Assembly: GCA_964600615.1 (NCBI GenBank)
Contig: CAZRJK010000005.1
Span: 7,398-71,397, forward strand
DNA from: an uncultured Muribaculaceae bacterium
GTDB taxonomy: Bacteria; Bacillota_I; Bacilli_A; RF39; UBA660
Reading direction: 5' to 3'
DNA: 64,000 bases
This document shows positions 3,336 to 47,527 of this stretch, in pieces (position 1 is the first letter of the stretch; each line of letters begins with the position of its first letter). Both the position numbers and the translations under genes were made by a program. The notes under the pieces were generated by a model that did not search any database, was not told the DNA's origin, and was given only the letters and a program-made list of their open reading frames with translations.

Positions 3336-3365
3336 AAAGAAAAAGAACTAGTCAAACTAGTTCTT
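3336..3365 (-). terminator. Rho-independent terminator of adhesin gene 1
   Basis: Inverted repeat aagaactag (3343-3351) / ctagttctt (3357-3365) with a 5-nt loop. An A-run on the + strand gives a T-run on the minus strand. The right arm contains the stop codon. Confidence 0.7.
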
Positions 3366-6134: not shown

Positions 6135-6168
6135 AATCATACTCTCCTATCATAACTACTATAAATAA

Positions 6169-6199: not shown

Positions 6200-6228
6200 G
6201 AAAAAAGAACTAAAACAAATTAGTTCTT
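6200..6228 (-). terminator. Rho-independent terminator of adhesin gene 2
   Basis: Inverted repeat aagaactaa (6205-6213) / ttagttctt (6220-6228), followed by a T-run on the minus strand. The sequence is nearly the same as the terminator at 3336-3365. Confidence 0.7.
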
Positions 6229-8832: not shown

Positions 8833-8858
8833 AAAATCACTCTACCTCTACTATGAAT

Positions 8859-8887
8859 AGTATAGCATAATAAAAATAAAAATACAA
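8859..8887 (-). promoter_or_regulatory. SigA-type promoter of adhesin gene 2
   Basis: Minus strand reads TTGTAT, a 17-nt spacer, then TGcTATACT (extended -10). It lies immediately after the infB terminator. Confidence 0.6.
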
Positions 8888-8888
8888 C

Positions 8889-8920
8889 AAAAAAAGAAAT
8901 AAAGATTATCTCTTTATTTC
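8889..8920 (-). terminator. Rho-independent terminator of infB
   Basis: 10-bp inverted repeat gaaataaaga (8896-8905) / tctttatttc (8911-8920). It overlaps the infB stop and is followed by T7 on the minus strand. Confidence 0.75.
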
Positions 8921-11014
8921 TACAATCTCATATGCTTCAATTATATCTTTTTCTTTTATATCATTAAAGCTCTCAATAGTAATACCACATTCAATACCAC
9001 TCTTAACTTCTTTTACTTGATCTTTCTCACGCGCTATAGTATTAATATTACCATCATACACTACTACACCATCTCTTATTATTCTAGCCTTAGCATCTCT
9101 CTTAATAATACCAGCAATAACCATAGAACCAGCAATAGTACCTACCTTAGAAAATTTAAATAACTTTCTAACTTCTGCACTACCAATTATTTTTTCTTCA
9201 TACTCTGGATCTAATTTACCCTTCATAGCTTGTTCCATTTCTTCAACTAATTTATAAATGATATTATATAACCTAATATCTACTTCTCTTTCTTTAGCAT
9301 AATCCATAATCTTATTATCAGGTCTTACATTAAATCCAATAATAATAGCATCACTAGCTTTAGCTAAAACAACATCAGACTCACTAATAGCACCAATACT
9401 ACTTCTAATAACATTAATTTTAATACCATCAACATCCAACTTTAATAATGAATTCTTAACAGCTTCTTCACTACCCTTAACATCTGCTTTCAAAATTACA
9501 TTAATTTCTTTAGAACCAGCATTTATTCTATCAAACAAATCATCCAAACTAACAGAATGATTTACATTCTTATTAGCTTCTTTATATTTTAGCAATCTAT
9601 TAGCCGCTATACTTTTAGCCTTTTTTTCTGTATCAAATACCATAAATTTATCTCCAGCACTTGGACTATCAGATAAACCAGTAATACTAACAGGAGTACT
9701 AGGACCAGCTTCAACTAAAGACTCCATCTTATCATTCTTTAAAGTCCTAACCTTACCAGCATAATTTCCAACAACAATGGCATCTCCCAATCTTAATGTA
9801 CCATTTTGAATAAGCAATGTACAACTAACACCAGATCCTTTATCTACCTTAGACTCTATAACAGTCCCAGAAGCATATCTGTTAGGATTTGCCTTTAATT
9901 CACACATCTCACTAACAAGTAAAATTCTCTCTAACAAATCATCTATACCCATACCAGTTTTAGCAGAAATATTAACAAACATAACATCTCCACCCCACTC
10001 TTCAGGCATAATACCAGCTTCTGCCATCTCCGTAAGAACTCTCTCAGCATTGGCCCCAGGTTTATCCATTTTATTAACAGCAACAATAATAGGTACTCCA
10101 GCAGCCTTAGCATGATCTATAGCTTCTTTAGTCTGAGGCATAACCCCATCATCAGCAGCTACTATAATAATAACAATATCAGTAATAGATGCACCTCTAG
10201 CTCTCATCTCTGTAAATGCAGCATGACCAGGAGTATCTATAAATGTTAATTTTTTATCATTATATTTAATTTGATAAGCACCAATAGCTTGTGTAATACC
10301 ACCAGCTTCACCTTCTACTACATTAGTCTTTCTAATAGTATCAAGCAAAGTAGTTTTACCATGATCAACATGCCCCATAATTGTAACAACAGGAGGTCTT
10401 TCCACTAATTCATCATCATTATCAACAATTTCTAACTCCTCAAAATTAGCTTCATCAACAACTTCTTCTCTCTTTATATTCTTATTGTAATCCATAGCAA
10501 TAATAGAAGCTGTATCAAAATCAATAGATTGATTTAAATTCATCATCATTCCCATAGACATAAGCTTCTTTATTATTTCAGAAACAGAAACACCAATACC
10601 ATTAGCAAAATCAGATACACTCATACCATCATGATATATAACATCATCATCACTAATTAAAACCTCATTAGATTTAAGCTTATCCTTATGCTTATACATT
10701 TCTTTTCTTTTCTTTTTAAAATCATTATCATCATCTAAAGAAACATCAACATTTTTTTTCTTCTTATTATTATTCTTAACTGGTTTACTAACCAACTCTA
10801 ATTCCTCTTCATAAGAATCAACTTCATCATAAGTTTCTTCTACATCATCACTATTATAATCACCATTATCTATTTCATTATCAAGCATTATAATAGCTTC
10901 ATCATCTAGCATATCATCTCCACTACTTGCATTAATATCTAATCTCTTACACAAATCTAATATAGTACTAACACTTAAAGAAACATCCTCTGCATATTCC
11001 AAAACACTCATCAT
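8906..11014 (-). CDS. infB: Translation initiation factor IF-2
   Basis: G1 'GHVDHGKTTLLD', G3 'DTPGH', G4 'NKMD'. The track ORF starts at TTG 11029; ATG at 11014 is preferred because it follows the SD GGAGGTGA. Confidence 0.95.
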   Translation of the reverse strand: MMSVLEYAEDVSLSVSTILDLCKRLDINASSGDDMLDDEAIIMLDNEIDNGDYNSDDVEETYDEVDSYEEELELVSKPVKNNNKKKKNVDVSLDDDNDFKKKRKEMYKHKDKLKSNEVLISDDDVIYHDGMSVSDFANGIGVSVSEIIKKLMSMGMMMNLNQSIDFDTASIIAMDYNKNIKREEVVDEANFEELEIVDNDDELVERPPVVTIMGHVDHGKTTLLDTIRKTNVVEGEAGGITQAIGAYQIKYNDKKLTFIDTPGHAAFTEMRARGASITDIVIIIVAADDGVMPQTKEAIDHAKAAGVPIIVAVNKMDKPGANAERVLTEMAEAGIMPEEWGGDVMFVNISAKTGMGIDDLLERILLVSEMCELKANPNRYASGTVIESKVDKGSGVSCTLLIQNGTLRLGDAIVVGNYAGKVRTLKNDKMESLVEAGPSTPVSITGLSDSPSAGDKFMVFDTEKKAKSIAANRLLKYKEANKNVNHSVSLDDLFDRINAGSKEINVILKADVKGSEEAVKNSLLKLDVDGIKINVIRSSIGAISESDVVLAKASDAIIIGFNVRPDNKIMDYAKEREVDIRLYNIIYKLVEEMEQAMKGKLDPEYEEKIIGSAEVRKLFKFSKVGTIAGSMVIAGIIKRDAKARIIRDGVVVYDGNINTIAREKDQVKEVKSGIECGITIESFNDIKEKDIIEAYEIVEIKR

Positions 11015-18084: not shown

Positions 18085-18112
18085 AAAAAAAGAGCTTTAA
18101 AAGCTCTTTTAT
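18085..18112 (-). terminator. Rho-independent terminator after the 105-aa membrane protein gene
   Basis: Inverted repeat aaagagctt (18089-18097) / aagctcttt (18101-18109) with flanking A/T runs. Confidence 0.7.
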
Positions 18113-18117
18113 TCATA

Positions 18118-18435
18118 TTAATCTTTCGCCTTTTGTTGTTCCCAACAATCATCCCAACTAATACCATCAGTAGCATTAGCAGGAAGTAACTTCCACACAA
18201 AAGTAACAAGAGTAGCAACTAAAAATACTGCTACAGCATAAACAACTCTTCTAAAGAAAATCTTTTGTGCTGCCTTCATTTCATCTTCCTTACCAGCAAT
18301 AACTGCTTTAGCTAAATCCAAAGTACCAAAAATAATTAATAAAACTGGAACTACCCACTTAATTAAGTTTACTATTCTAAAAGCAATATAAAGAACATCC
18401 CCTAAATCAGTACAATAATCTACTAAAAAAAACAT
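18118..18435 (-). CDS. Small two-TM hairpin membrane protein (unknown function; topology like VirB2-type or pilin-like proteins)
   Basis: 105 aa. Two hydrophobic helices ('WVVPVLLIIFGTL', 'VVYAVAVFLVATLVTFVW') are separated by a charged loop 'AKAVIAGKEDEMKAAQKIFFRR'. Has its own promoter and terminator. SD GAGGAGGAAAG. Confidence 0.5.
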   Translation of the reverse strand: MFFLVDYCTDLGDVLYIAFRIVNLIKWVVPVLLIIFGTLDLAKAVIAGKEDEMKAAQKIFFRRVVYAVAVFLVATLVTFVWKLLPANATDGISWDDCWEQQKAKD

Positions 18436-18544: not shown

Positions 18545-18571
18545 ATAAAAAATAACTACAATTCTGTAGTT
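18545..18571 (-). terminator. Rho-independent terminator ending the Tad-like operon
   Basis: Inverted repeat aactaca (18554-18560) / tgtagtt (18565-18571) with a 4-nt loop and a T-run on the minus strand. It overlaps the tadZ-like stop codon. Confidence 0.6.
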
Positions 18572-19580
18572 AAAATTTAAAAAACTTATTCTTTGAAGTA
18601 TCTGCAGATTCATTAGTTACTTTTTTATATAATCCTAATCTTTCCAAAAATGGAAGCAATATCTTAGAATTATCATCCCTATCATTCATAGGAGGTAAAG
18701 CATAAAATATCTTAATTCTTGCCTCTCTACTAAAGACAGAAATATCCTTATCAGAAAGCAAACATTTATTTAAAACAACCTTGTAATTTCTTAACTTAAC
18801 CAAAGATTTAGGATCTGCCTTAGAAACTTTATTAATAGCTAATAAAGAAGGTTCAATTAAATAAATAAACTCTGTACAAAAACTATTCGCATAATCATCA
18901 ACAACATTATTCAAATCCATTAAAATAATATTAACATCAGTATATTCTTCTAAATAACGATTTATCTCATCATCCTTAATAGATACCATTCCTTTATCAT
19001 TAAAAAATATAAAATCAGTTTTATTAATTTCTAAAGAAATAACAGAATAATTCTTCTCTAATTGCTTCTTTATCATATATATCAATGTAGTAGAACCAGC
19101 ATGATTAGTAAAATTTTTAAACCCAATAACCCTAGGTTTCCTTCTCTTAGAACTTTCGTCACTATCTTGAACAAAACTATTAGATTCACCAATAAAACTA
19201 CTATTTACATTTTGATACTTAGCTACATCTTTATATTGATTAGGATTATTATATAAATATAATAACTCATCCTCATTTCTAGCAAAATTATATATACCTA
19301 AACTAACTAACTTAGATATATAAGCATCATTAACAACAGGATCATCATTTAATAACAATATAATTTTACTAACATCAAGTCCAATAGAAAGTTTTTGAAT
19401 ATTATTAATATCTCTATAGTTTTTAATAGAAGTAATATCCAAAAACATTCTATTGAAGAAAAAATTGGAGAAAGTTTGTACCAACTCCTCAGAAGAAAAT
19501 TCTCCATTCATAGACTTAATAATATCAACATTCAAATTATTAAATTTTTGTTTATTTAAATTAGATACTATAACATTCAT
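18570..19580 (-). CDS. tadZ: TadZ/CpaE-like pilus localisation protein (ParA/MinD fold with degenerate Walker A, plus a receiver-like N-domain)
   Basis: About 336 aa. ATG at 19580 follows the SD TTGGAGGA. C-terminal half 'RVIGFKNFTNHAGSTTLIYMI...ILMDLN' aligns to the deviant Walker A 'KGGvGKTT' but lacks both lysines. Sits in the Tad locus. Confidence 0.55.
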   Translation of the reverse strand: MNVIVSNLNKQKFNNLNVDIIKSMNGEFSSEELVQTFSNFFFNRMFLDITSIKNYRDINNIQKLSIGLDVSKIILLLNDDPVVNDAYISKLVSLGIYNFARNEDELLYLYNNPNQYKDVAKYQNVNSSFIGESNSFVQDSDESSKRRKPRVIGFKNFTNHAGSTTLIYMIKKQLEKNYSVISLEINKTDFIFFNDKGMVSIKDDEINRYLEEYTDVNIILMDLNNVVDDYANSFCTEFIYLIEPSLLAINKVSKADPKSLVKLRNYKVVLNKCLLSDKDISVFSREARIKIFYALPPMNDRDDNSKILLPFLERLGLYKKVTNESADTSKNKFFKF

Positions 19581-19599
19581 ACAATCATCCTCCAATTAA

Positions 19600-20034
19600 T
19601 TAACCTGCAATAACCTTTGTCTCTCCACTTGCAACAATAGGTATTTTTAAATCCATAATAGGTAACCTTACTATATGATATACACTAACAGTATAATAAT
19701 GTTTATTATCACTACCCTTTTGAATAACACAAACACCTAAGCCACTAAAATCTTCCAAAGCAGTACCATTAGTAGCTTTACAATATTCTTCAAAAGGAAG
19801 ATCATCACCAAACTTAGTAGTATAAGGAACATTAGCCAAATAAGCACTTAATTTAACACTTATATTCCCATCATCCTTACCACTATACTGTTCGTGTTCT
19901 AATATATTTATAACATTATTTTTTACTCTATATATCTTAGCAAAATTAAGTGCTACACCAATTACTGAAATATATAAAACAAAGAAAACCATAAATATAT
20001 ATATCATAGCAGTTCCACCATATGCATCTCTCAT
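19600..20034 (-). CDS. TadE-like minor pilin / pseudopilin candidate
   Basis: 144 aa. Short polar leader 'MRDAYGG' then hydrophobic 'TAMIYIFMVFFVLYISVIGV'. Sits directly after the flp-like gene, as tadE does in other Tad loci. Confidence 0.5.
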   Translation of the reverse strand: MRDAYGGTAMIYIFMVFFVLYISVIGVALNFAKIYRVKNNVINILEHEQYSGKDDGNISVKLSAYLANVPYTTKFGDDLPFEEYCKATNGTALEDFSGLGVCVIQKGSDNKHYYTVSVYHIVRLPIMDLKIPIVASGETKVIAG

Positions 20035-20065
20035 ATAAAATCACCTACCTAAATAACAATTAAAA

Positions 20066-20230
20066 TTAATATTGCTCATCAGCTTTTTTAGTCATTTTAG
20101 TCCATTGATCATTAATCCAAGTTTTTGCTAAACCATCTTTTCCAAAAAAGAAAGTAAGAATAGCTATTAAAGCAATAACAGCAATTATAACAACAACTGT
20201 CATACTTAATTCACCTGTAGCTTCTTTCAT
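20066..20230 (-). CDS. flp: Flp-family (type IVc) pilin, 54 aa (not in ORF track)
   Basis: I translated MKEATGELSMTVVVIIAVIALIAILTFFFGKDGLAKTWINDQWTKMTKKADEQY. A strong SD AAGGAGGTGA lies 8 nt upstream of the ATG. A short polar leader ends in Gly and is followed by a hydrophobic helix. Sits between tadC and the tadE-like gene. Confidence 0.7.
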   Translation of the reverse strand: MKEATGELSMTVVVIIAVIALIAILTFFFGKDGLAKTWINDQWTKMTKKADEQY

Positions 20231-20275
20231 TCAAAACTCACCTCCTTAAATTAAATTTCTTATTATCATATTTAA

Positions 20276-21073
20276 TTACATAGCGTTAGCAAGCATCATA
20301 AACATTGATACAAGTAGTAGCAACATTCCGCCTCCGCCAGTACAAACTAACATAATCATTGTCATACTTTCCATACGATTAAGTCTATTCTTATATTTTT
20401 GTTCCCTAGCCTTCTCTTGAAGATTAGAAACACTTTTAGAAAATGATAACAATTGTTGATGTTTTCTTTCTTGCTCACCAAGTCCTAATCTATATAACAA
20501 TCTCATCATTCTCATAGAATCCCTAACAGGATATCTATTAGCAAAATCTGTATAAGGTTGAATACTTGAGTCCCCTGCCTCAATCTTAGCAACCAATTCC
20601 TTTAAACCAGGTTTAAATACCGCAGGAGCATCATCAATACTTCTAGCAAGTGCTACTGGCACTGTATAATGCTGTATTAATACCTCTAAACCCTTTAAAT
20701 AATATGGAAGTAACGAATCAACCTCCGTCAAATGCTTCTTATAATAATTTCGTAAACTAATATAATCATACTTAAAGACAAAAACACCAACAACTAAACA
20801 AATTATAACGTTTACAAAACTTAAATTAGAAATAAAGACAAATACCATAACAATAGTTACAAGAAAAGCATTTTTAAATCTCCCCATAAATACTCTTTCA
20901 GGATCAACAACCCTATCACCATATTTAGCATATAATAAGAATTCATAATCACTTTCCTTAAGCATATTAAATATATCTTTATTATCTTCTACAAATTTAC
21001 CTGTATTAATTCTTCCAGTGTAAATAAAGACAAACATCAATATAATTCCAAATATTAAAATCTCTGTATACAT
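20276..21073 (-). CDS. tadC: TadC-like inner-membrane platform protein (T2SS-F family)
   Basis: About 265 aa, polytopic, second of two tandem platform genes after the ATPase. The start is uncertain: the track gives 21112, and I prefer ATG 21073 just after the tadB stop (MYTEILIFG...). Confidence 0.6.
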   Translation of the reverse strand: MYTEILIFGIILMFVFIYTGRINTGKFVEDNKDIFNMLKESDYEFLLYAKYGDRVVDPERVFMGRFKNAFLVTIVMVFVFISNLSFVNVIICLVVGVFVFKYDYISLRNYYKKHLTEVDSLLPYYLKGLEVLIQHYTVPVALARSIDDAPAVFKPGLKELVAKIEAGDSSIQPYTDFANRYPVRDSMRMMRLLYRLGLGEQERKHQQLLSFSKSVSNLQEKAREQKYKNRLNRMESMTMIMLVCTGGGGMLLLLVSMFMMLANAM

Positions 21074-21074
21074 A

Positions 21075-21971
21075 CTACTCAGCCCCCACATTCTCATTAT
21101 AGAATTTCTCACCTTTTAATAAAAAGTAAGTATTTATAAAAATCAAACCATGTAGCGCGATAACAATAAGAACATTATTTAACATAGAAATATAAGTATC
21201 AATCTGTACCAAAAATTGCAGCAAAATAACAATACCATAAAGAGCAAAACCAAATAACAAAAACTGCCTATGGAAATTAGCTCTATCCATTCTGTCCCTA
21301 TAAACACCTTCAACTAAAATATCTATATCAGATAACATATTTTCAAATGTTTCAGCAGTATCCTTAGCACCTTCTTTAGTAACTTGTAAAAACAATTGAT
21401 GCATATTCTTTACCATAAAGAAAGGATATTTAGAATTCATATATTCAATTGAGGCATAAACATCACCTTTTTCATATGATAAAGCTATCATAGTCTTTAC
21501 ATCAGATAAAACAGGATCTTCTAATATACCAGATTCAACAACTCCCTCTAAAGACTTAACAAAAGCCTGTGTAGTTGCAAACTCCATTATAGTATTAGTA
21601 ACATATACTTGAATCTGTTCAAATATAAATTCACTATATTGCCTTTTTGACCTCAAATATGTCAAATAAGGAACAAAAGCTATAGCAATAGCTAAATAAA
21701 ATAAAGACCACCAAATACTATAAAAATACAAATATCCAACTCCAGCAGCAAAAGCACCAATTAAAACAACCTGCATAATATATTGCCTTGGAGTATAATC
21801 TATACCTAATGCCTTAATCTTATTACGCATCTCTTTATATGAATAAGGTGCATATTTATCATATAGACTAGTAGCTTGCTGAGAAATAAATTTATATACA
21901 CCTTCACCAGTACTAGATCTATACGTAATAATAAATATTATTATCAATCCAACAATAAAAACTTCTAACAT
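21075..21971 (-). CDS. tadB: TadB-like inner-membrane platform protein (T2SS-F family)
   Basis: 298 aa. TM, then a cytoplasmic helical domain, then TM-TM, the architecture typical of GspF/TadB. Lies immediately downstream of the secretion ATPase. Confidence 0.6.
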   Translation of the reverse strand: MLEVFIVGLIIIFIITYRSSTGEGVYKFISQQATSLYDKYAPYSYKEMRNKIKALGIDYTPRQYIMQVVLIGAFAAGVGYLYFYSIWWSLFYLAIAIAFVPYLTYLRSKRQYSEFIFEQIQVYVTNTIMEFATTQAFVKSLEGVVESGILEDPVLSDVKTMIALSYEKGDVYASIEYMNSKYPFFMVKNMHQLFLQVTKEGAKDTAETFENMLSDIDILVEGVYRDRMDRANFHRQFLLFGFALYGIVILLQFLVQIDTYISMLNNVLIVIALHGLIFINTYFLLKGEKFYNENVGAE

Positions 21972-21991
21972 ATACTCACCTCAATTCACTA

Positions 21992-23395
21992 CTATACATT
22001 ACTTACATTAGTATATAATAAATTTGTATTTTTTTCAATAGGATTACTATTAACCATACCATTATTATTAACATTAGTACCTAAATTATTATCATTTACA
22101 ATATTATTATTAACATTGCCAACATTATTATTACTAACATTTACATTATTATCACTAATTAATTCATAATTTAAATTTAACAATGGATTAATACCATTAT
22201 TCAAATTGTTAGTCCCATTTATAACATTATTATTAGGAACAACATTTTCCTGTACTGGATTACTATTTGGTACAGGAATATTATTTTGCACAGGTTGATT
22301 AACAACAGAAATGTTAGAATTCTCATCAGCAGCCTCATGAAAACTTTCTTTTACCAAAGTGTCAGGTTGCATAATAACACCTTGACTTTCCAAATAACCT
22401 AAAAGATATTTAGTAGGATTATTTAAAATTGTCTTACCATCTGGGGTTCTTTTATATAAAATTTTATAACCAGGTGTATTATCATCATCCACATAAAATT
22501 CTACAACCTCAGCAACTTCTCTCTTAAATCTCTGTAACTCTTTACTATAATATCCCTTAATATGTACACCTAACTGTACATATCTATGTATACTCCTTAA
22601 AAACTGATCCATATCAATACTAGATTCTAGTAAACTATACAAACGGCTAGGTATAGACTCAGCTTTTTCAGCATGTATAGTAGACAAAATATTATGTCCA
22701 GAAGATATAGAGTCACGAACAGCCATAACAGCTTCAGCACTTCTAACCTCAGATAACAATATCCATCTAGGATTCTGTCTCATACAAGTAACAAGAACAT
22801 CAGCATAACTAGCTATATTATTAGTCTTCATTGCCACTATGTCCCTTTGAGGAAATATTTTATCTAAGTGCAATTCAAGAGTATCCTCAATAGTAATAAG
22901 CTTTTCATCAGTTTTAGTATGAGCAGCTAAATACTTAACAAACTCTGTTTTACCACTACCAGTTTCACCACTTACTAGTATATTACAATGTCCCTCTACG
23001 CACTTAAGCAAAAAATCATGAATATCTAATCTAATATAATCTTCTTTTAATATTTTTTCTTTCTCCAGCCTAATTTTAGCAGGAGTTTTACGAATAAGAA
23101 CAGCTATTCCATTTCTTGCAATAGAATCATGAACAAAGTTCATACGAAGTTCATCACTCTCAGCATCAAGAAATGGATTAGCCATATTAAAGGCTTTACC
23201 CATTGAATTAGCACACTGAAAAGCCATTTTTTCCATAAACGCATTATTTACAGCAGGATTTTCAACCCTATATACACCTTTAGATAACGTCTTTAACCAT
23301 ACTTGTCCACCATTACTATATGATATATCAGTTACGTCATCATTATCTAAATAAACTTGAATAGGCCCAAAATCAACTTGAGTAAATTCATTCAT
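21992..23395 (-). CDS. tadA: TadA/CpaF-type secretion ATPase with an Asn-rich C-terminal extension
   Basis: 467 aa. Walker A 'SGETGSGKTEF', 'ITIEDTLEL' (Asp box), Walker B 'RWILLSEVR', His box 'GHNILSTIHA'. The last 105 aa or so are N/V-rich low complexity. Confidence 0.85.
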   Translation of the reverse strand: MNEFTQVDFGPIQVYLDNDDVTDISYSNGGQVWLKTLSKGVYRVENPAVNNAFMEKMAFQCANSMGKAFNMANPFLDAESDELRMNFVHDSIARNGIAVLIRKTPAKIRLEKEKILKEDYIRLDIHDFLLKCVEGHCNILVSGETGSGKTEFVKYLAAHTKTDEKLITIEDTLELHLDKIFPQRDIVAMKTNNIASYADVLVTCMRQNPRWILLSEVRSAEAVMAVRDSISSGHNILSTIHAEKAESIPSRLYSLLESSIDMDQFLRSIHRYVQLGVHIKGYYSKELQRFKREVAEVVEFYVDDDNTPGYKILYKRTPDGKTILNNPTKYLLGYLESQGVIMQPDTLVKESFHEAADENSNISVVNQPVQNNIPVPNSNPVQENVVPNNNVINGTNNLNNGINPLLNLNYELISDNNVNVSNNNVGNVNNNIVNDNNLGTNVNNNGMVNSNPIEKNTNLLYTNVSNV

Positions 23396-23415
23396 GAATT
23401 ATCACCCCTTATTGA

Positions 23416-24261
23416 TTAATTCTTTTTAGTATCTTTTTTCTCTTCTTTACTTTCAGTTACTTCTTTAGTAGTTGATAAAATTTCATCTACAGAAACCATC
23501 TTAGTTTTTTCATTAATAAATTTTTGAATATCTTCACTACTAACCATTACAGCATCATCATTAGTAAGTTCTTTAGTATTAGGAACCAAAATCAATTCTA
23601 CATTATATTGACCAGCTAAATATATAGCTTTCCTAAATAATAAATGCATATCTTCTGGTAAAGCAAATAACATATAAGCAGGAATTCTAGCTTCTTCCGT
23701 AGTATCAAATACATGTTGTCCAGCACTATCCTTTACATCTAATATTTCAACATTACTAATAAATTTACCAAACATAATAGTATTATCATCATTAGTACCC
23801 TTAAAATAAATATTAATATATTCTCCTGGCATCATACTATTAGCATAAGTACTATCCATATCAACTTTATAATTTATAACAGTATAGCCTTTCTTTACAT
23901 TAATAAATGAAGAATTAGGTAAACTTTTTTCATCTATAAGTAAATCAGTATAGAAAATACTACCTTCAGCTATCATAGTATTATAATTAGAATACTTTCC
24001 AACTATATCATCAACATTTTTATAATAACTTCCCTTCAAGAATGACGCAGGAACATTCATATAAGCAACCATATCAGCAGTAATCTTAGTTTTAGGCTGA
24101 ATAGTATGTTGCGCATAAGGAACCCTTGTCAAAGAAACTCTTTGATTTATCCTAACATTATAACCAACCCACAAAACAGCAACACAAAGTAACACCCCTA
24201 GAATAGTAACAGTATTCCTATTACCCAAAAATTTTTTTAATGAACCAGACAAATTATTCAT
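23416..24261 (-). CDS. cpaB: CpaB/RcpC-like pilus assembly protein (TM plus SAF-like domain)
   Basis: About 281 aa. N-terminal TM 'VTILGVLLCVAVLWVGY'. SAF-like 'VPYAQHTIQPKTKITADMVAYMNVP...IVGKYSNYNTMIAEGSIFYTDLL'. Sits upstream of the ATPase. Confidence 0.6.
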   Translation of the reverse strand: MNNLSGSLKKFLGNRNTVTILGVLLCVAVLWVGYNVRINQRVSLTRVPYAQHTIQPKTKITADMVAYMNVPASFLKGSYYKNVDDIVGKYSNYNTMIAEGSIFYTDLLIDEKSLPNSSFINVKKGYTVINYKVDMDSTYANSMMPGEYINIYFKGTNDDNTIMFGKFISNVEILDVKDSAGQHVFDTTEEARIPAYMLFALPEDMHLLFRKAIYLAGQYNVELILVPNTKELTNDDAVMVSSEDIQKFINEKTKMVSVDEILSTTKEVTESKEEKKDTKKN

Positions 24262-24296
24262 TAATATCACCCTTTCTTTTTTTTATATCAAAATTA

Positions 24297-24770
24297 TTAA
24301 TCTACTACTTCTAAAATACCAGATAAATAATTTGTTATATTTACATCATTCACCATAGATTCATAACTCTTATTACCAGACGTTACTATAACACTAGCTT
24401 TAGGCGGAGATTCAATAATATCATAAAATTCTATATCATAAGAATCAACATTACCTGAAATACTCTCAGAAAATCTTCTAGTAAAATTCTCCACAAATTT
24501 TTGTTCAGATATTTTTAAATTACCATTACATCCAGTATAAATATATGCGCCACTAGCATCTTTTTCAGGAACCTGACTATTATTATATTTCACAGCACTA
24601 CTCCTATAACAAGCAAAATCAACAGATTCCAACATTGCAGCTTCCATAGACTCTTTTAAAACATAATACTCACTATCATTATCAAGAGTAATAGATTCAA
24701 ACAACATAATAATTATAATACCGACCATTCCAAAAAATATCATAGCCATTCCCATAAAACCATATCTCAT
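24297..24770 (-). CDS. Pseudopilin-like protein (TadE/TadF-like candidate)
   Basis: 157 aa. 'MRYGFMG' leader then 'MAMIFFGMVGIIIIMLF'. The N-terminal pattern is shared with 19600-20034 (MR..(Y/F).G.AMI). Confidence 0.45.
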   Translation of the reverse strand: MRYGFMGMAMIFFGMVGIIIIMLFESITLDNDSEYYVLKESMEAAMLESVDFACYRSSAVKYNNSQVPEKDASGAYIYTGCNGNLKISEQKFVENFTRRFSESISGNVDSYDIEFYDIIESPPKASVIVTSGNKSYESMVNDVNITNYLSGILEVVD

Positions 24771-24787
24771 TTTTAAATATCACCTAC

Positions 24788-27700
24788 CTATTTATTAGGG
24801 TCATTATCGCAGCCTTTACTAAATTCTCCAAGATTACAATAAGAAATACCAGAATTACATACACGTTCTCCAAATATTAATCCACTACCAGTATTAACTT
24901 CAGGACAAACAACATTACTCTTACCATTAGATAACATATGATCCCAGTTAGTATAACTAGTATCATTAAATTTTCTTACATCAGATAAAGAATTTTTACT
25001 AGCATCGTTATTATCATATTTATTAATATGAATAGAATATAATGGTTTATCAATATTAGAAAAAGTATTGCCTAACCTATTAGGATTCTCTTTATACCAT
25101 TTACTCCAATTACTAGGAACCTTCTTAGGAAAAGGATTATTAACATTTATACTTCTATAATTATATTTTAATTCTTTACCTTTAACAGTAGTAGAACAAC
25201 TTAATTTATGATTAATTACAATACCCTCATGATTACTTAAATTAACTCCATTTACACCAATTGTTTTAAAATCAACTGTTTTTAGATTACTTGGATAATC
25301 AATAGGAATATAATATAAAGTTTGTTTTAACTCATTTACACCCAGTATATAATTTTGTCCACAATCATTAGCAATTGTATCTAAGTATTTAATAGATCCA
25401 TTATTATATTTAGTTCCTTGTTCATTCAAATATTTCCTAGCTATACAAGAAGTATTCAAATTAACATTAAAAAAATATTTACGATGAAAATTAACATTAC
25501 CATCAGTAGAATTACTATTATCATATTTATCCAATGTAGTTGTAGTCTTTACTATAGAAGTCTTAACAGTATTATTGCTATCAAGATAATTATTACTATC
25601 AACAGATTGAAATATTCTTATATTTTTATCTAATTTTCTACCTTTTCCTAATCCCCTAGTATCAGAAAGATCATCTAATTTATTCATAATTTTTTGACCA
25701 AAAGAAGTATTTGCACTTATAGGATTAGAACATTTATCATCAGTATAAATATCACCCAATTTAACATTGTCAACAATAGAAAATTCAATAGGACCACTAT
25801 TTTTAGCATTTTTCCCATTGTCAAAAGTAATATTAGATACAACATCATAATCATCTTTATTACCCTTCACCAAATAATACTTACCACCAACAAGACTAAC
25901 AGTTACTCCAGCACCTCCCTTTATAAGGGATGCATACCTAACAGTAAAATCATTTACAATAGTAGCACTAGTATTAAATCCACTTCCAATATAAGGAACT
26001 TCAGTAGGTTTTTTGACTGTTAAAGTAGATTTTTCTGTAATCAACAAAGGAATAGTGGATAAAGAAGCCCTAATTTTGACACAATCAGTTCCCTTACCAG
26101 CAGCAATTAAATCAGAAATTGTCTTGCCATTTTCTTTTTTATAAAATTTTAAATCCGTTATTTCTCCATTATCAAAAGAAAACTTTTTATTTTTTATATT
26201 ATAATAAAGAAAATCAGGTAAACTAGGAACTATTTCTTTAAGATTTATATTTACTTTTACAGAAGAATTAAATTTTTGAATTCCCTCACCATTACTTTTA
26301 TTATGAGTCTTCGTATACGTTTTAACAGGACCATTTTCTGTTTTAGGTTCTTGTTTACATTGTATAGCATCCCTTACAATACCAGCAATCCTATCAGCAA
26401 CTGTAGAAGAAGAATTTACTATACTAGCATCAACGATCTTATTTTCTCCTATTTTAAACCAGCTAGTCCCTGGAAAATCGTTTTTCATTTTATCGCCTGT
26501 TTTTGGAACATTAACACATTTCCCATTTTCTATTCTATAACAACGTTTAATCCTATATTTTCCTGTTTCTGAATCATATTTTAATCCACAGTCAGGTTCA
26601 TTTTTATTTCTTCCCTTTGTACTTGTTCCCCAAACTCTACAAATGTGTTTTTCATTAACATAAAGATGAAATCTGTGCTGATAATATAGTGTTCCATTAC
26701 CATTACCATTAGATTTAATAAATTGATCAAGCCTTGTTTTTGTCATATCAAAATAAATATAATCACCAGAAGGATAGCCAAAGAATTCACCAGCATCAGG
26801 ATAACTATTTTTCTTTATCTCATAAGTATAAATAGTTTTACCATCAATATAATCACGTAAAGCCTTAACACCAGTATGATATGGTGTATTACTATTTAAA
26901 CCTTCATAAGTTTCAGCACTAGGATTCAAAAGAAATTTAGCATATTGATCACCATCAGGATTTACAGCCGTATCGCCTAAATCAATACCTACAGTAATTA
27001 CCTTTGCCTGCTTATTTAGAGTTAATAATTTACTCTTTAAGGTATTAAAAGTTCTTGCAACCCAAAATACTCTACGAGGTCCAGAAGAACCAGAACCATA
27101 AAATTCATTTGTACCTCCCCTGATATAATTTGCCTTTAAAGCCATTTTAGAAAAATTTGCATTAAGAAATCCTTGAGTTGGATAACCATCAGTAATAAAA
27201 ATAACTATTGGAATTTGATTTCCACTATTTTTTGCCTCCAATAAAGACCAAGCCTTATATAAAGGATATTGCAAATCAGTATAATCTCCATACTTTTCGC
27301 CTTCAGATTCTTTTTTTATAAATCTATTACTATTATCAGTATTTTTATATCTATTATAAGCATTCCTTATGCTTAACCAACCAGTAGCACTTCTATCTGC
27401 CAAATCATAAAAAACATTAGTTTTATCGCCAGTTTCCATACCACCAAATTTCACTAAATTAACACTACCAGTACCATTATCCAAACTATCTAGCTCTCCT
27501 AAAATATTAGCTATTGCTCTATTGGTATTTCCAACCCTATTTCCTACTTTCATAGAACCACTAATATCTACAAGAATAACAACATTATAAGAATATGATT
27601 CATCGCATCCTGGTATTATCTTAGTATTTGAAAGATAAATACTAGTAGACATACCAGTTATATTTTCCGAAGTATCAGATTCAGAAACACATTCCTTACT

Positions 27701-27853
27701 TGTAACACTACTTTTAACACTGGTTGTTGTTATATCAGCTTCTCTTATTTTAATAACATCACCCACATTAATATCAGCAGTATTAGGAGCCGCTTCAACC
27801 ACTACAATACCAATAAAATATATAACAAAAAATAAAAATATATTTTTTTTCAT
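24788..27853 (-). CDS. Large secreted von Willebrand factor A (vWA) domain protein, candidate pilus-associated adhesin
   Basis: 1021 aa. Signal peptide 'IFLFFVIYFIGIVVVEA'. MIDAS 'VVILVDISGSM', a later 'VIFITDGYPT' and 'ITVGIDLG'. Long beta-rich C-terminal part with a Cys-rich end. No LPXTG and no TM anchor. Confidence 0.7.
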   Translation of the reverse strand: MKKNIFLFFVIYFIGIVVVEAAPNTADINVGDVIKIREADITTTSVKSSVTSKECVSESDTSENITGMSTSIYLSNTKIIPGCDESYSYNVVILVDISGSMKVGNRVGNTNRAIANILGELDSLDNGTGSVNLVKFGGMETGDKTNVFYDLADRSATGWLSIRNAYNRYKNTDNSNRFIKKESEGEKYGDYTDLQYPLYKAWSLLEAKNSGNQIPIVIFITDGYPTQGFLNANFSKMALKANYIRGGTNEFYGSGSSGPRRVFWVARTFNTLKSKLLTLNKQAKVITVGIDLGDTAVNPDGDQYAKFLLNPSAETYEGLNSNTPYHTGVKALRDYIDGKTIYTYEIKKNSYPDAGEFFGYPSGDYIYFDMTKTRLDQFIKSNGNGNGTLYYQHRFHLYVNEKHICRVWGTSTKGRNKNEPDCGLKYDSETGKYRIKRCYRIENGKCVNVPKTGDKMKNDFPGTSWFKIGENKIVDASIVNSSSTVADRIAGIVRDAIQCKQEPKTENGPVKTYTKTHNKSNGEGIQKFNSSVKVNINLKEIVPSLPDFLYYNIKNKKFSFDNGEITDLKFYKKENGKTISDLIAAGKGTDCVKIRASLSTIPLLITEKSTLTVKKPTEVPYIGSGFNTSATIVNDFTVRYASLIKGGAGVTVSLVGGKYYLVKGNKDDYDVVSNITFDNGKNAKNSGPIEFSIVDNVKLGDIYTDDKCSNPISANTSFGQKIMNKLDDLSDTRGLGKGRKLDKNIRIFQSVDSNNYLDSNNTVKTSIVKTTTTLDKYDNSNSTDGNVNFHRKYFFNVNLNTSCIARKYLNEQGTKYNNGSIKYLDTIANDCGQNYILGVNELKQTLYYIPIDYPSNLKTVDFKTIGVNGVNLSNHEGIVINHKLSCSTTVKGKELKYNYRSINVNNPFPKKVPSNWSKWYKENPNRLGNTFSNIDKPLYSIHINKYDNNDASKNSLSDVRKFNDTSYTNWDHMLSNGKSNVVCPEVNTGSGLIFGERVCNSGISYCNLGEFSKGCDNDPNK

Positions 27854-27875
27854 GACCTAACCTCATTTCACAAAA

Positions 27876-28499
27876 CTAATCCAAACGATTGTCTTTTATT
27901 TTTTTCTTTATAAATAAAATCAACAAGACAATTATTAAAATAGCAATTGGAATAAAATAATAATAATAACCAGTTACAAAATTTAAAAGATTATCAAATA
28001 TTCCTCCATTACTAGCTGCATTATACTCAGCTACCAAATTATCAAATTGCTTGTCTGTAAATTCCTCTTCAGTCCACTCGTCACAAATTTCCAAATCACT
28101 ATGTTGTTCACAAAAAGGAGACTGACTATACTCATTAAACTTAGGTAAATTTATAGTTATATAATCAACCACTACATCACATTTTTTTGAATAAACCTTA
28201 AATCCTTTTTTTCCACTCTGTATAAAATTTTTTTGCGCATTAACCTCAAATAAAAAATTATTATCATTATCATCAATAAAAACATAAAAATCATTATCCA
28301 GAGCCTCAAAGTAAACTTCATAAGTTTGAAAATCACCATCAGTCACAGAATATCCAACATAATCATACTGATAAGTTATTCTTTTAGATAACTGTTTTAA
28401 ATAATCAATCTCATTACTATCACAATCTTCTGCTTTTACGTATAAATTAAAACTTAAAAACAAGAATAAGATTAAGCAAATATATTTAAATTGTCTCAT
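27876..28499 (-). CDS. Secreted protein with C-terminal TM anchor, first gene of the Tad-like operon (unknown function)
   Basis: About 207 aa. Signal peptide 'YICLILFLFLSFNLYVKA'. C-terminal TM 'YYYFIPIAILIIVLLILFI' plus 'KKKIKDNRLD'. ATG at 28499 follows the SD GGAGAGTAGGTGA. Confidence 0.5.
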   Translation of the reverse strand: MRQFKYICLILFLFLSFNLYVKAEDCDSNEIDYLKQLSKRITYQYDYVGYSVTDGDFQTYEVYFEALDNDFYVFIDDNDNNFLFEVNAQKNFIQSGKKGFKVYSKKCDVVVDYITINLPKFNEYSQSPFCEQHSDLEICDEWTEEEFTDKQFDNLVAEYNAASNGGIFDNLLNFVTGYYYYFIPIAILIIVLLILFIKKKIKDNRLD

Positions 28500-28529
28500 A
28501 TACAATATTCACCTACTCTCCTATTAAAA

Positions 28530-28565: not shown

Positions 28566-28594
28566 TTGTATTTTTTTAAAAAAAGTGTTATTAT
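28566..28594 (+). promoter_or_regulatory. SigA-type promoter of the thioredoxin-like gene
   Basis: TTGTAT (28566-28571), a 17-nt spacer, then TGtTATTAT (-10 at 28589-28594). Lies about 20 nt upstream of the SD AAGGAG. Confidence 0.55.
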
Positions 28595-28620
28595 ATATAT
28601 TACATATAAAGGAGATTTTT

Positions 28621-29067
28621 ATGAAAGAAAAAAATAATAGATTATTTGTTACACTAATAATAATATTTATAATAATAGTATCATCACTATTAATTATTAA
28701 TATTTTAAATCCAAAGAAAGGACAACTAGTAGCAATAAACTACAAAGAATATAAAAATAAAATTAATAAAAAAGATTCATTTATCTTAGTAGTAAGTGCT
28801 AGTACATGTTCACATTGTGCTGAATATAAACCAAAATTAATTAAAATTGCCAGCAAAAACAATATAAATATTTACTACATAGATTATGACTTAGAATCTT
28901 CTAAAGATCAAAAAGAATTTTTAGATAATAATAAATTAAATGGATCAACACCTATAACTCTATTTATAAAGAACGGAAAACAAACTAGTTTATTTGATAG
29001 AATTGAAGGAGATGTTTCTCAAGAGAAAGCAATAGAAAAATTTAAAAAAATGGGATTTATTAAGTAA
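28621..29067 (+). CDS. Membrane-anchored thioredoxin-fold thiol-disulfide oxidoreductase
   Basis: About 148 aa from ATG 28621 (SD AAGGAG). TM 'LFVTLIIIFIIIVSSLLIINIL' then 'FILVVSASTCSHCAEYKP' (CxxC). Confidence 0.75.
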   Translation: MKEKNNRLFVTLIIIFIIIVSSLLIINILNPKKGQLVAINYKEYKNKINKKDSFILVVSASTCSHCAEYKPKLIKIASKNNINIYYIDYDLESSKDQKEFLDNNKLNGSTPITLFIKNGKQTSLFDRIEGDVSQEKAIEKFKKMGFIK

Positions 29068-45495: not shown

Positions 45496-46020
45496 CTAAG
45501 TCCAGCTTTTTAGACTAGAAGTACCATTAAATCTTTCAGTGCACCAAAACATTTTTCCACTAGGAATAGTTTTAGCAGTTGAACCCTCACCATAAATAGT
45601 TGTAGCTTGTGTAGATTCTGCATTTCTTACATGAAATTTTCCATTTGATCCTGCAGATGTTAAGCAAACTTCAAACCTCTCAGTACTAGATTCAAACCTA
45701 ACATATGAATTATCTGCATCAATATCTTTGTTTGAAATATTTAAAGTAGTTAATGTAGTAGAAGTCAAAGTTTGAGGTGTACCAGTTTTTAAAGTTTCCA
45801 AACTAACACCTAAAATTGTAGTTGCCCCAATAACTTGTGACTCAACATATCCTGTATTGAATGCTTCTTGCACTATTAATGCATTATCTTGTAAAGAACC
45901 TTTCCTTGAATTATTCATAGATGTAATTACACTATTAGCAGCAATTCCCATAACTACAGCAAGAATAACTATAACAGCAAGCAACTCTATTAAAGTAAAA
46001 CCTTTATTATTTAATTTCAT
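45496..46020 (-). CDS. Type IV pilin / pseudopilin with canonical prepilin N-terminal methylation motif
   Basis: About 174 aa from ATG 46020 (SD AGAGGAGGAA). 'MKLNNKG|FTLIELLAVIVILAVVMGIA' is a class III signal with Glu at +5. Confidence 0.85.
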   Translation of the reverse strand: MKLNNKGFTLIELLAVIVILAVVMGIAANSVITSMNNSRKGSLQDNALIVQEAFNTGYVESQVIGATTILGVSLETLKTGTPQTLTSTTLTTLNISNKDIDADNSYVRFESSTERFEVCLTSAGSNGKFHVRNAESTQATTIYGEGSTAKTIPSGKMFWCTERFNGTSSLKSWT

Positions 46021-46052
46021 AATTTCCTCCTCTATTTTATAAATAAATAATA

Positions 46053-46080
46053 CCAAAAAAACAATTGTTAGTCAATTGTT
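46053..46080 (-). terminator. Rho-independent terminator after rsmD
   Basis: aacaattg (46060-46067) / caattgtt (46073-46080). It overlaps the rsmD stop and is followed by a T-run on the minus strand. Confidence 0.6.
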
Positions 46081-46952: not shown

Positions 46953-47174
46953 TTACTTAAAAACATCAAGAAAACTTTGTAACATATTAATATTATCCAT
47001 TGTTTTATTTATTTTATCCACAGTAGTAAGCTTATACTTTACCCTCATTTCATCTACAAAATATTTAAAACTATTACTATTTCTATTTAAATATTTATAC
47101 CAATAAGAATTCTCTCTTAAAAATCTTTTTAAATTAATATCTTTTTCTATTTTATATTGAATACTATATTCCAT
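46953..47174 (-). CDS. YlbE-like protein
   Basis: 73 aa. 'LRENSYWYKYLNRNSNSFKYFVDEMRVKYKLT' matches the YlbE-like pattern (P.WY+.L.R....f..f......Y+.T). Confidence 0.6.
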   Translation of the reverse strand: MEYSIQYKIEKDINLKRFLRENSYWYKYLNRNSNSFKYFVDEMRVKYKLTTVDKINKTMDNINMLQSFLDVFK

Positions 47175-47527
47175 TAATCATCAAACTTTCTATATAAAGG
47201 CCTAGGATTATAAGTAGTATTATTAGTATTACTACTAACAAACAAATCACCTAATAAAGTTAAGGTCTTTTGTAAAGAAGTAATACCCTCCTGCACTTTA
47301 TCAACATCTATATTTTTAGCCATTTTTACTAAATCCTCAAATTTAAAACTACTACTAGAATTATTAGAATTACCATTTAAATATTTATTCCAAGCTTCTT
47401 CATCATCACCAACTATATCATATAATTCATATAATTCCTGCCAAGTCTTTTTTTTATCTCTAACATAACTAATTAAAAAAGGATTAGCCTTAACAAACAA
47501 TTTAAAACTATCACTTCTATCACTCAT
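47174..47527 (-). CDS. YlbD-like putative spore coat protein
   Basis: 117 aa. 'FKLFVKANPFLISYVRDKKKTWQELYELYDIVGDDEEAWNKY' matches the YlbD_coat pattern. Confidence 0.6.
   Translation of the reverse strand: MSDRSDSFKLFVKANPFLISYVRDKKKTWQELYELYDIVGDDEEAWNKYLNGNSNNSSSSFKFEDLVKMAKNIDVDKVQEGITSLQKTLTLLGDLFVSSNTNNTTYNPRPLYRKFDD

Follow-up and report, generated by a model that had tools for sequence, protein, structure and literature searches.

We analysed a stretch of 64,000 nucleotides (the window) of contig CAZRJK010000005.1, GenBank assembly GCA_964600615.1, from an uncultured bacterium of the RF39 lineage. A run of ten open reading frames (ORFs), g1-g10, occupies positions 18570-28505 of its minus strand, with intergenic gaps of 1-45 nt. 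The best explanation of the sequence comparisons is that this locus is a chromosomal counterpart of the front block in conjugation operons of the pLS20/pXO2/Listeria/Enterococcus type. By Tad models, the locus is not a recognisable member of the Tad family. In our best reading, its products would form a filament or pseudopilus, derived from Tad (type IVc-like) but far diverged, as one module of a domesticated monoderm system related to type IV secretion systems (T4SS). The gene content, its conservation, the homologies and the synteny with plasmids and with T4SS genes were observed directly.

Gene content and conservation of the locus

The genes are given here in the order of transcription.

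g1, 27876-28505, minus strand: 209 aa; signal peptide and C-terminal transmembrane (TM) segment; its ATG at 28499 was taken as the end of the locus in a first-pass annotation of this DNA
g2, 24788-27853, minus strand: 1021 aa; large secreted surface protein with a borderline von Willebrand factor A (vWA) domain
g3, 24297-24770, minus strand: 157 aa; DUF5411, N-terminal hydrophobic helix, minor-pilin-like
g4, 23416-24270, minus strand: 284 aa; CpaB/RcpC-like, N-terminal TM segment and SAF-type domain
g5, 21992-23395, minus strand: 467 aa; T2SSE-family secretion ATPase
g6, 21075-21971, minus strand: 298 aa; polytopic membrane protein in the TadB position, counterpart of pLS20 gene 38
g7, 20276-21112, minus strand: 278 aa (265 aa in database gene calls, which start at the ATG at 21073); polytopic, in the TadC position
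g8, 20066-20230, minus strand: 54 aa; candidate major subunit, Flp-sized
g9, 19600-20034, minus strand: 144 aa; minor-pilin-like
g10, 18570-19595, minus strand: 341 aa (336 aa in database gene calls, which start at 19580); TadZ-like two-domain protein

The first-pass annotation had counted eleven genes, and the ORF table gives ten. The ORF positions, the common strand and the tight packing were as it had described them. When the ten proteins were scanned one by one with Pfam and NCBIfam, only g3 (DUF5411) and g5 (T2SSE) could be placed in a family.

A scan of one genome per species showed that at least 499 genomes encode a relative of g5. The best 80 of these are 70-91% identical in g5 and are all metagenome-assembled genomes (MAGs) of uncultured gut "Bacilli/Tenericutes/Mollicutes", among them Clostridium sp. 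CAG:914 and CAG:609, Acholeplasma sp. CAG:878, Ca. Fimihabitans and a closed 1.26-Mb MAG. Metagenomes hold thousands of near-identical g5 relatives. We take the carriers to be the order RF39, judging by GTDB names. The gene order of the block persists in at least 80 species genomes of uncultured RF39-type gut Bacilli. Conservation was counted in the 48 related loci in which the ATPase gene has 6 kb or more of sequence on either flank. The genes g4-g5-g6-g7 were present in the same order in all 48, g3 in 46, g9 and g10 in 39, and g11, a small gene downstream of g10, in 34. These counts bear out the co-conservation among relatives on which the first-pass annotation had made its proposal depend, and the association of the genes exceeds chance.

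Duplications were also seen in the relatives. Two tandem CpaB-like genes are found in L019, L024, L030 and L061 (about 8350-9970), and two g9-type and two g8-type genes are common. L061 has a second g3/g1/large-protein set after g7.

Similarity to plasmid conjugation operons

The plasmids compared were nine, from the pLS20 family, pXO2, Listeria (pLM80-like), E. faecium, Brochothrix, Virgibacillus and Paraclostridium. The core order was the same in all nine: a big adhesin, a protein of ~125 aa with an N-terminal TM segment, the ATPase, a ~270-aa protein, a ~250-290-aa protein and a ~120-aa protein with an N-terminal TM segment (DUF4320). The adhesins are of the thioester, isopeptide or SpaA type, and tiny TM proteins of 47-59 aa also occur in most of the plasmids. 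In five, the block is followed by an annotated TrbC/VirB2-family gene, with an ~80-aa protein before it (DUF5415 in one). Six carry an annotated VirD4 further on, which belongs to the CD1115 family in five. This order, pLS20 genes 34-41, corresponds to g2-g3-(g4)-g5-g6-g7-g8/g9-(g10)-g11. The layout of the locus, previously described as non-canonical, is that of pLS20/pXO2-type conjugation operons.

The protein comparisons agreed with the gene order to different degrees. The ATPase g5 matched pLS20-type plasmid ATPases in tblastn at E = 1e-43, with 35% identity over 93% of the query. g3, a DUF5411 protein (PF17424, E = 1.3e-33), aligned with the p36-like family in hhalign at 96.5% probability (E = 7e-10, 118 columns), and g7 aligned with the p39-like family at 96.3% (E = 1.8e-9). 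The values were lower for g6 against p38-like proteins (31%, E = 5e-4, 204 colinear columns) and for g9 against p40-like proteins, that is pLS20 gene 40/DUF4320 (55%, E = 1e-4; 2% against TadE). hhalign gave no significant match of g8 to the tiny plasmid proteins or of g11 to plasmid TrbC/VirB2 (1%), since both proteins are too short and hydrophobic for the method. On these comparisons, we regard homology to the plasmid block as secure for the ATPase, g3~p36 and g7~p39, and as suggestive for g6~p38 and g9~p40. In pLS20, gene 37 is listed as a putative VirB11 and genes 36 and 38-41 as being of unknown function (PMC8557374).

The locus also differs from the plasmid operons. It is chromosomal and kept across an order, with no relaxase in view, and it adds CpaB and a TadZ-like protein, which the plasmids lack. 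Its candidate adhesin is no thioester or isopeptide protein. Its tiny subunit has a leader with a Gly, whereas the plasmid proteins (MLDQNTDR...) lack a Gly leader. In the Brochothrix plasmid (L091, 5470-6198), four tandem 50-aa genes for tiny TM proteins of the MLDQNTDRSWW type, two of which encode the same protein, sit between the adhesin and the ATPase block and look like an amplified putative subunit gene.

The ATPase g5

g5 has a T2SSE domain (Pfam, E = 8e-26). In alignment A1, the Walker A residues G143, G148, K149 and E151 are invariant, and E170/E174, E216/E221 and T239/H241 complete the set of four motifs. Among solved structures, CpaF is the best match (PDB, E = 4e-18), with archaeal GspE, VirB11 and FlaI close behind. 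However, every NCBIfam match was far below its cut-off, and VirB11 (114 bits) ranked ahead of TadA (TIGR03819, 97 bits against a cut-off of 373) and FlaI (85 bits). Gram-positive plasmid ATPases matched at E = 1e-43 to 1e-25, and canonical CpaF/VirB11 proteins at about 1e-18 to 1e-11, the best being about 1e-18 for CpaF and 1e-15 for VirB11. The hhalign E values were 1.4e-50 for the plasmid set, 1e-31 for the VirB11 set and 5e-26 for the CpaF set, and identity was 30% to the Gram-positive plasmid ATPases against 24% to CpaF. In a rough neighbour-joining tree, built without archaeal sequences, the RF39 proteins and their metagenomic relatives formed one broad group that the plasmid ATPases joined next, with CpaF and VirB11/TrbB as the outgroup. 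These results indicate that g5 belongs by sequence with the Gram-positive conjugative "CpaF/VirB11 family". The first-pass assignment to TadA/CpaF was right as to the ATPase class, the motifs and the best solved relative, but g5 lies outside the CpaF clade.

The C-terminal third of g5 (21992-22354) carries an Asn-rich low-complexity tail whose length varies among near-identical relatives. The relatives are 421-584 aa long despite 93-97% core identity, and distant relatives have acidic N-terminal extensions instead.

Association with type IV secretion genes

The following features of the window lie outside the run of ten.

g11, 18118-18435, minus strand: VirB2/T4SS-pilin-like protein with two TM segments; promoter-like site and ribosome-binding site (RBS) of its own
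Hairpin and U-run after g10, 18545-18572, minus strand: leaky terminator at best
Strong predicted terminator after g11, 18088-18110, minus strand
Membrane-anchored thioredoxin, 28585-29067, plus strand: Pfam Thioredoxin, E = 2.9e-6; divergent to g1
VirD4-like coupling protein of the CD1115 family, 36976-39108, minus strand: NCBIfam conju_CD1115; 18 kb from the locus

g11 matches the T4SS_pilin family (PF18895) at E = 1.4e-4 and 22.3 bits, below the gathering score of 26.6; its orthologues in L105 and L106 have a precomputed PF18895 match. What follows g10 was examined in 42 related loci with at least 5 kb after that gene. In 37 of them, one to five g11-like pilin genes lie within 4 kb downstream of g10, and arrays of 2-5 are frequent. 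Either 25 or 26 of these loci continue with a VirB6-like protein of ~640 aa, which is weakly similar to pLS20_p028 and to Mbov_0396 VirB6-like proteins, and then with a ~105-aa protein. The latter is followed in 22 loci by a TraC-like/VirB4 N-terminal piece (~185 aa), and a VirB4-like ATPase was seen after that piece in the six loci that extend far enough. The VirB4 of the relatives scored 351 bits with Mbov_0397 of the Mycoplasma integrative and conjugative element (ICE), against a cut-off of 590, and 176 bits with CD1110.

More distant lineages, whose ATPases are 40-51% identical, keep a trimmed set consisting of the thioredoxin, the ATPase, a g10-like protein, a T4SS pilin, VirB6-like and VirB4 proteins and a SpoIID+CHAP hydrolase. 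This variant was found in low-G+C lineages (L105, 3296-11087; L106, 4674-12356; L107, 763-11941), with VirB4 split into about 181 and 597 aa. L105-L107 have no g1-g4 and no g6-g9, that is, no CpaB, platform or pilin-like genes, and g10 stays beside the ATPase even there. Therefore the secretion genes are regularly accompanied by the ATPase, g10, the thioredoxin and the VirB2-like pilin. The CpaB/platform/pilin genes form a module, which may be present, split off or absent.

Among T4SS genes searched for in the window with the proteins of the relatives, g11 alone was found. The VirD4 at 36976-39108 scored 308 bits with conju_CD1115 (cut-off 250, E = 8e-92), matched Pfam T4SS-DNA_transf and is 26% identical to pLS20 VirD4 (E = 7e-56). 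It is possibly part of the same, dispersed system. It stands among housekeeping genes (lysS, dus, SIR2, PrsA-like), with no relaxase or other T4SS gene beside it, and is followed by a 110-aa protein (36231-36563, minus strand) with a borderline CotD match.

CpaB-like, TadZ-like and platform-like proteins

A profile of 81 g4 orthologues aligned with canonical CpaB in hhalign at 97.8% probability (E = 6.5e-13, 226 columns), which confirms g4 as a CpaB homologue, in line with the first-pass annotation. The single-sequence matches to hidden Markov models (HMMs) TIGR03177, SAF and RcpC were weak and below the cut-offs.

g10 matched no family in Pfam, NCBIfam, orthologue-wise Pfam scans or a profile search against PDB sequences, and its hhalign match to a TadZ profile was weak (5.5%). 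Its AlphaFold2 (AF2) model, with a confidence (pLDDT) of 76 overall and about 90 in the C-domain, has an α/β receiver-like N-domain, a disordered linker and a SIMIBI-type P-loop C-domain of the MinD/ParA type. Foldseek returned HypB, MinD, ParA and FlhG at E = 4e-6 to 1e-3, and matched 3FKQ, the structure of TadZ (PMC10499894), at E = 5.8e-5 over both domains and 399 columns. The P-loop, GFKNFTNHAGSTT, is degenerate and lacks the GK[ST] lysine; an atypical Walker A is known for TadZ (PMC6668835). By its modelled fold alone, g10 has the TadZ/CpaE architecture, in agreement with the first-pass description of a TadZ-like ParA-fold protein.

The hydropathy of g6 and g7 is that of the TadB/TadC topology, with an N-terminal TM segment, a TM pair, a cytoplasmic domain of ~130 aa and C-terminal TM segments. 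Pfam T2SSF matched 3 of 38 g7 orthologues (E >= 0.058) and none of 40 g6 orthologues; g7 itself gave E = 0.11. When the families were pooled with their plasmid counterparts, the g6 + p38 profile matched TadB at 67% (E = 5e-5) and TadC at 0.3%, and the g7 + p39 profile matched TadC at 58% (E = 1e-4) and TadB at 3.6%. The two pooled families are paralogous (80%, E = 1.4e-5). The AF2 model of g7, made from an alignment of sequences of at least 70% identity, had low confidence (pLDDT 64). Its six best PDB matches in Foldseek were all GspF/EpsF/OutF cytoplasmic domains, but at E = 0.7-1.2. These profiles and the model suggest a remote likeness of g6 and g7 to TadB and TadC, which is probable but not established.

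Pilin-like proteins g3, g8 and g9

The small proteins g3, g8 and g9 each have an N-terminal helix, and they share a short M-K/R-E-A/S-x-G leader that is conserved across dozens of species. The N-termini of g3 begin MKESFWG or MKWSF. The g9 leader, MRDAYGG, is followed by a hydrophobic helix; the g9 orthologues, many of them duplicated, have M[RK][ED][AS]xG in common. g8, whose start is preceded by a strong RBS, AAGGAGGTGA, has the leader MKEATG and then a hydrophobic helix; its motif is MKEATG-ELSMT, with no E-Y at +5/+6. Across the loci, 66 copies of the g8 type share MK[EA][AV]x[GS]E and the hydrophobic helix, and many end in CC. In size and architecture, g8 is Flp-like. To judge by these motifs, the leader is short and class-III-like, and distinct from the Flp motif G/XXXXEY. 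The first-pass view of pilin-like small proteins held for the helix and the shared leader; the Flp and TadE models themselves recognise neither g8 nor g9.

In many clades (L018, L020, L021, L023, L025, L027 and others), the g8-type subunit is 70-90 aa long and is the first ORF after g7. These longer subunits carry a CC pair within the first 42 residues (KSSCC, KRTCC), and the 54-aa g8 of the window is Cys-free. The CC pairs and the co-conserved membrane thioredoxin hint at disulfide chemistry in the fibre or its partners.

Apart from the locus, the window encodes a classical type IV pilin or pseudopilin (45496-46056, minus strand; PF07963, E = 6e-9) with the N-methylation motif MKLNNKGFTLIELLAVI, which includes KGFTLIE. 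Therefore a prepilin peptidase and a second system, of the Com or T4aP type, should exist somewhere in the genome.

Secreted proteins and the thioredoxin

g1 has a conserved Cys just after its signal peptide and a C-terminal membrane anchor. Orthologues were found in 27 of the 48 loci, with a signal peptide and then a [D/x]C motif, and g1 matched no family in Pfam or NCBIfam. g2 contains a putative vWA domain at residues 90-236 with a DISGS motif resembling a metal-ion-dependent adhesion site (MIDAS). The match is borderline (VWA, 23.7 bits against a cut-off of 23.8; VWA_2, 24.2 against 27) and lineage-specific. Proteins in the position of g2 in 43 loci are 358-1547 aa long, nearly all with a signal peptide; the two below 500 aa start within 50 bases of the locus end and are cut off. 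No Pfam domain was found in the ten positional orthologues tested, and phmmer with g2 matched none of the positional orthologues at E <= 1e-3. They have in common only a Cys-containing consensus in the C-terminal ~150 aa. g2 is a candidate variable adhesin by these features. The 1021-aa length and secretion of g2 agree with the first-pass annotation; the vWA assignment is borderline. A vWA protein would not be odd in itself, because TadG-type vWA proteins occur in classical Tad loci.

The orthologues of the thioredoxin, which are PedC-like with a weak TraF match, lie divergently upstream of the locus in close relatives. They are also upstream in distant lineages where the locus is reduced to the ATPase, g10 and the T4SS genes. 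Because of this position in close and distant lineages, we count the thioredoxin as part of the system and not as a housekeeping flank. It is probably a disulfide-forming helper for the secreted, Cys-bearing parts.

Other surface proteins are encoded elsewhere in the window. Two adjacent secreted or N-anchored proteins of 315 and 462 aa (41249-42196 and 42212-43600, both minus strand) have no Pfam match. By eye, they have a Cys-rich C-terminal region in common (GNSGCSGASCNGVNVNFV and GDNGCSGSSCSGVNVNFV) and are paralogues; the pair (41249-43600) lies a few kb from the type IV pilin gene. Two large tandem proteins of 927 and 870 aa (3357-6140 and 6220-8832, both minus strand) have SpaA/prealbumin-like domains, which suggests a sortase-type pilus or adhesin and, with it, a third surface-fibre system in 64 kb.

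Transcription signals, genomic setting and host

The hairpin after g10 has a folding energy of -8.2 kcal/mol (z = -2.8) and is followed by a U-run. The terminator proposed earlier at 18545-18571 is thus a real hairpin with a U-run, but a weak one. Promoter-like matches occur at chance frequency in this AT-rich DNA (83 found against 85 expected; 25-29% G+C in the region), so the scan is uninformative on the promoter that had been proposed. The composition shows no break at the locus. Downstream of g10 come a 134-nt spacer, g11 and polA; the setting is chromosomal, between polA/fpg on one side and the divergent membrane thioredoxin and tRNA-Arg on the other. The boundaries of the first-pass annotation were too narrow, as g11 usually accompanies the locus and the thioredoxin is co-conserved with it.

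polA adjoins the locus in the near relatives of the window only, and the flanking genes vary between clades. Because the flanks differ in this way, the locus appears to be resident and vertically kept and not a recent insert. No relaxase or integrase domain was found among the ~50 window proteins scanned for Pfam domains. This, together with relatives in at least 499 species genomes, upholds the earlier description of a resident, integrase-free chromosomal system. A prophage or integrative element was rejected, given the lack of an integrase among these proteins, the housekeeping flanks and the conservation across an order.

RF39 bacteria have strongly reduced genomes and are auxotrophic (PMC6784871); a peptidoglycan wall and the capacity to sporulate have been predicted for them (Field et al. 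2024, PMC10868615). The window of this metagenome-only lineage holds sporulation-type genes: SpoIID (54502-55434), an M23 peptidase (53801-54454) and YlbD_coat (47174-47527), all on the minus strand. With SpoIID and YlbD_coat in the window and the predictions of PMC10868615, the first-pass term "spore-forming monoderm" is reasonable, against the objection that a lineage with a reduced genome should not form spores.

Discussion

We consider it somewhat probable that the locus makes a short fibre which displays a fast-evolving adhesin and which either cooperates with a type IV secretion apparatus or has its evolutionary origin in such cooperation. From the gene block we infer the fibre, its subunit, the adhesin role and the functional coupling to secretion. 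A hexameric ATPase, g5, on a TadB/TadC-like platform of g6 and g7 would drive a thin fibre of the 54-aa subunit g8, which the pilin-like g3 (DUF5411) and g9 may prime or cap. The CpaB-like g4 would form an extracytoplasmic collar, and the TadZ-like pseudo-ATPase g10 may position or recruit the motor. The displayed adhesin would be the fast-evolving g2 with the membrane-anchored g1, whose disulfides the neighbouring membrane thioredoxin may make. Through this module the cell would touch a partner cell or a surface, and the contact would serve a monoderm T4SS. The parts of this T4SS would be VirB2-like pilins, VirB6-like and VirB4-like proteins and a CD1115-type VirD4, whose genes directly adjoin the locus in most related species but are scattered in this genome.

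Several observations weigh against this reading. g6 and g7 match no T2SSF, TadB or TadC model in Pfam, NCBIfam or PDB-sequence profile searches, so the first-pass description of g6 as TadB-like and g7 as TadC-like does not hold at the level of HMM assignment. With g5 outside the CpaF clade as well, the outcome that the first-pass annotation had named as refuting its proposal, a failure of HMM searches to place the ATPase and the platform proteins in the Tad/CpaF-TadBC clade, is largely what was observed. Their link to TadB and TadC consists of profile probabilities of 58-67%, from small reference sets, and of one model with pLDDT 64 and Foldseek E of about 1. g8 has neither a Flp_Fap match nor the G/XXXXEY motif (hhalign against Flp, 0.8%), and the TadE Pfam model matches neither g3 nor g9 (hhalign against TadE, at most 2%). 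The window has no ORF of the GxGD type, and an A24 profile plus the motif revealed no credible prepilin peptidase in 1.48 Mb around 80 related loci; its absence from the locus had been noted in the first pass. g8-g10 are missing next to g7 in 9 of the 48 loci. VirB4 and VirB6 genes are not adjacent in the clade of the window, and tblastn with the proteins of relatives did not find them in the window, so the coupling to secretion in this genome is argued by analogy. To our knowledge, the plasmid module has never been observed to form a filament. Gram-positive conjugation systems are stated to form no pili (PMC8557374, PMC11730352).

The locus shares much with the classical Tad loci of Aggregatibacter (tad), Caulobacter (cpa) and Pontibacillus, namely CpaB, a TadZ-like protein, a T2SSE ATPase, two paralogous platform-like proteins that follow each other as TadB and TadC do, minor-pilin-like proteins and a major subunit of very small size. 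It has no secretin, as in other monoderms. It differs from them in the clade of its ATPase, in the lack of T2SSF, Flp_Fap and TadE model matches and of G/XXXXEY, and in the TadZ-like gene standing last. It has no A24 peptidase gene, whereas the monoderm Pontibacillus reference has one between Flp and TadE, and it is associated with T4SS genes. In line with the first-pass proposal, the locus could instead make a divergent Tad/Flp pilus that stands alone, its adhesive fibres serving gut colonisation or biofilm independently of any secretion system; the T4SS adjacency elsewhere would then be incidental. In favour of this, CpaB, the TadZ-like protein, the ATPase, two platform-like proteins and small pilin-like proteins are all present. 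The cluster stops at g10 here and in the nearest relatives, with housekeeping or unrelated genes beyond, and a weak terminator follows g10. Tad loci without a secretin are known in monoderms (PMC6668835, PMC11680825). However, the ATPase groups with those of conjugative plasmids, and 37 of the 42 relatives run co-directionally into VirB2-like pilins and T4SS genes. In the distant lineages, the pilus parts are gone while the ATPase and g10 stand with the T4SS genes, and neither a prepilin peptidase (window and 80 loci) nor a Flp motif in g8 was found. We regard such a pilus as unlikely overall, though plausible for this particular genome.

In another reading, no filament would be made. g5 would then be a VirB11-type energiser of a monoderm T4SS channel, to which g3, g6, g7, g8 and g9 would contribute system-specific subunits of the channel or envelope, with a superficial resemblance to pilins and platforms. 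L105-L107 have the ATPase and T4SS genes but no platform or pilin genes. The NCBIfam ranking and the hhalign values, which place g5 nearer VirB11 than CpaF, are consistent with this, as is the lack of Tad HMM matches to g6 and g7; gene 37 is modelled as a VirB11 by the pLS20 authors (PMC8557374). However, classical VirB11 comes without CpaB, TadZ and paired polytopic partners, and here the CpaB homology is strong and the TadZ fold clear. The reciprocal TadB/TadC profile matches, the topology and the GspF-like top folds point to a type IV filament platform, and a short leader with a hydrophobic helix in three protein families is typical of pilins. Because of the CpaB, TadZ and platform evidence, we consider a system without a filament quite improbable.

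A DNA-uptake (competence-like) or chromosomal DNA-exchange machine, in which the fibre would capture DNA or partner cells and VirD4/VirB4 import or export DNA, would be analogous to ComB of Helicobacter or Ced/Ups of Sulfolobales and would benefit an auxotrophic host with a reduced genome. Such a machine is highly improbable: the chromosomal, order-wide distribution without a nearby integrase, the housekeeping context of VirD4, the reduced genomes of RF39 (PMC6784871) and weak VirB4/VirD4 matches to CedD/CedB models speak for it, but the CedB/CedD scores are negligible and the separate classical type IV pilin (KGFTLIE) in the window could serve competence.

The locus and its relatives also resemble two groups of published systems. 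Tandem arrays of VirB2-like pilins in a relaxase-less monoderm T4SS are a hallmark of Patescibacteria systems (PMC12102498, PMC12857230). Like these, the relatives have PF18895-type pilin arrays beside VirB6/VirB3/VirB4-like genes on the chromosome of an uncultured host with a reduced genome, with no relaxase in view. Unlike these, they belong to the phylum Bacillota, their VirB4 is closest to the Mycoplasma-ICE and CD1110 types, and the Patescibacteria (CPR) loci have not been reported with a VirB11-like ATPase and a CpaB/TadZ/platform module. Pilus or secretion operons containing DUF5411 have been predicted computationally in Roseburia, Ruminococcus and Eubacterium (Miller et al. 2022, PMC9523054), and the TANB77 Tad-like pilus (PMC11680825) is the other nearest published item. 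These share with the locus gut Firmicutes hosts, a CpaF-type ATPase, a PilC/GspF-like protein, DUF5411 or small TM pilin-like proteins and a large surface protein. As compared by their descriptions, they differ in that standard tools recognise the ATPase and platform and that no link to T4SS or conjugation is reported. We found no paper on this system in RF39 or on a Tad-like module in Gram-positive conjugation.

RF39 and, by homology, the pLS20, pXO2, Listeria and Enterococcus plasmids may, as a tentative proposal, possess an unrecognised hybrid machine, in which a Tad-derived filament (motor, platform, tiny subunit, minor pilins and variable tip adhesin) lies inside a monoderm T4SS with VirB2-like pilins. 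If this is true, a pilus-like fibre would after all be built by some systems for mating or secretion in Gram-positive bacteria. The locus offers a reading for the block of genes of unknown function in these plasmids, and the idea is directly testable because pLS20 is genetically tractable. Type IV filament and type IV secretion modules are seen combined, split and trimmed across the lineages, which bears on the kinship of VirB11-type and Tad/archaeal-type ATPases.

Few uncultured, auxotrophic lineages are as prevalent as RF39 in the gut of humans and animals, and its interaction with other cells is almost undescribed (PMC6784871). With a core kept in every related locus examined and a very fast-evolving candidate adhesin, the locus is a prime candidate for RF39 cell interaction. 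If the hybrid machine exists, it would be a case of domestication for obligatory contact between cells in a reduced-genome gut lineage, comparable to that of the T4SS in Patescibacteria.

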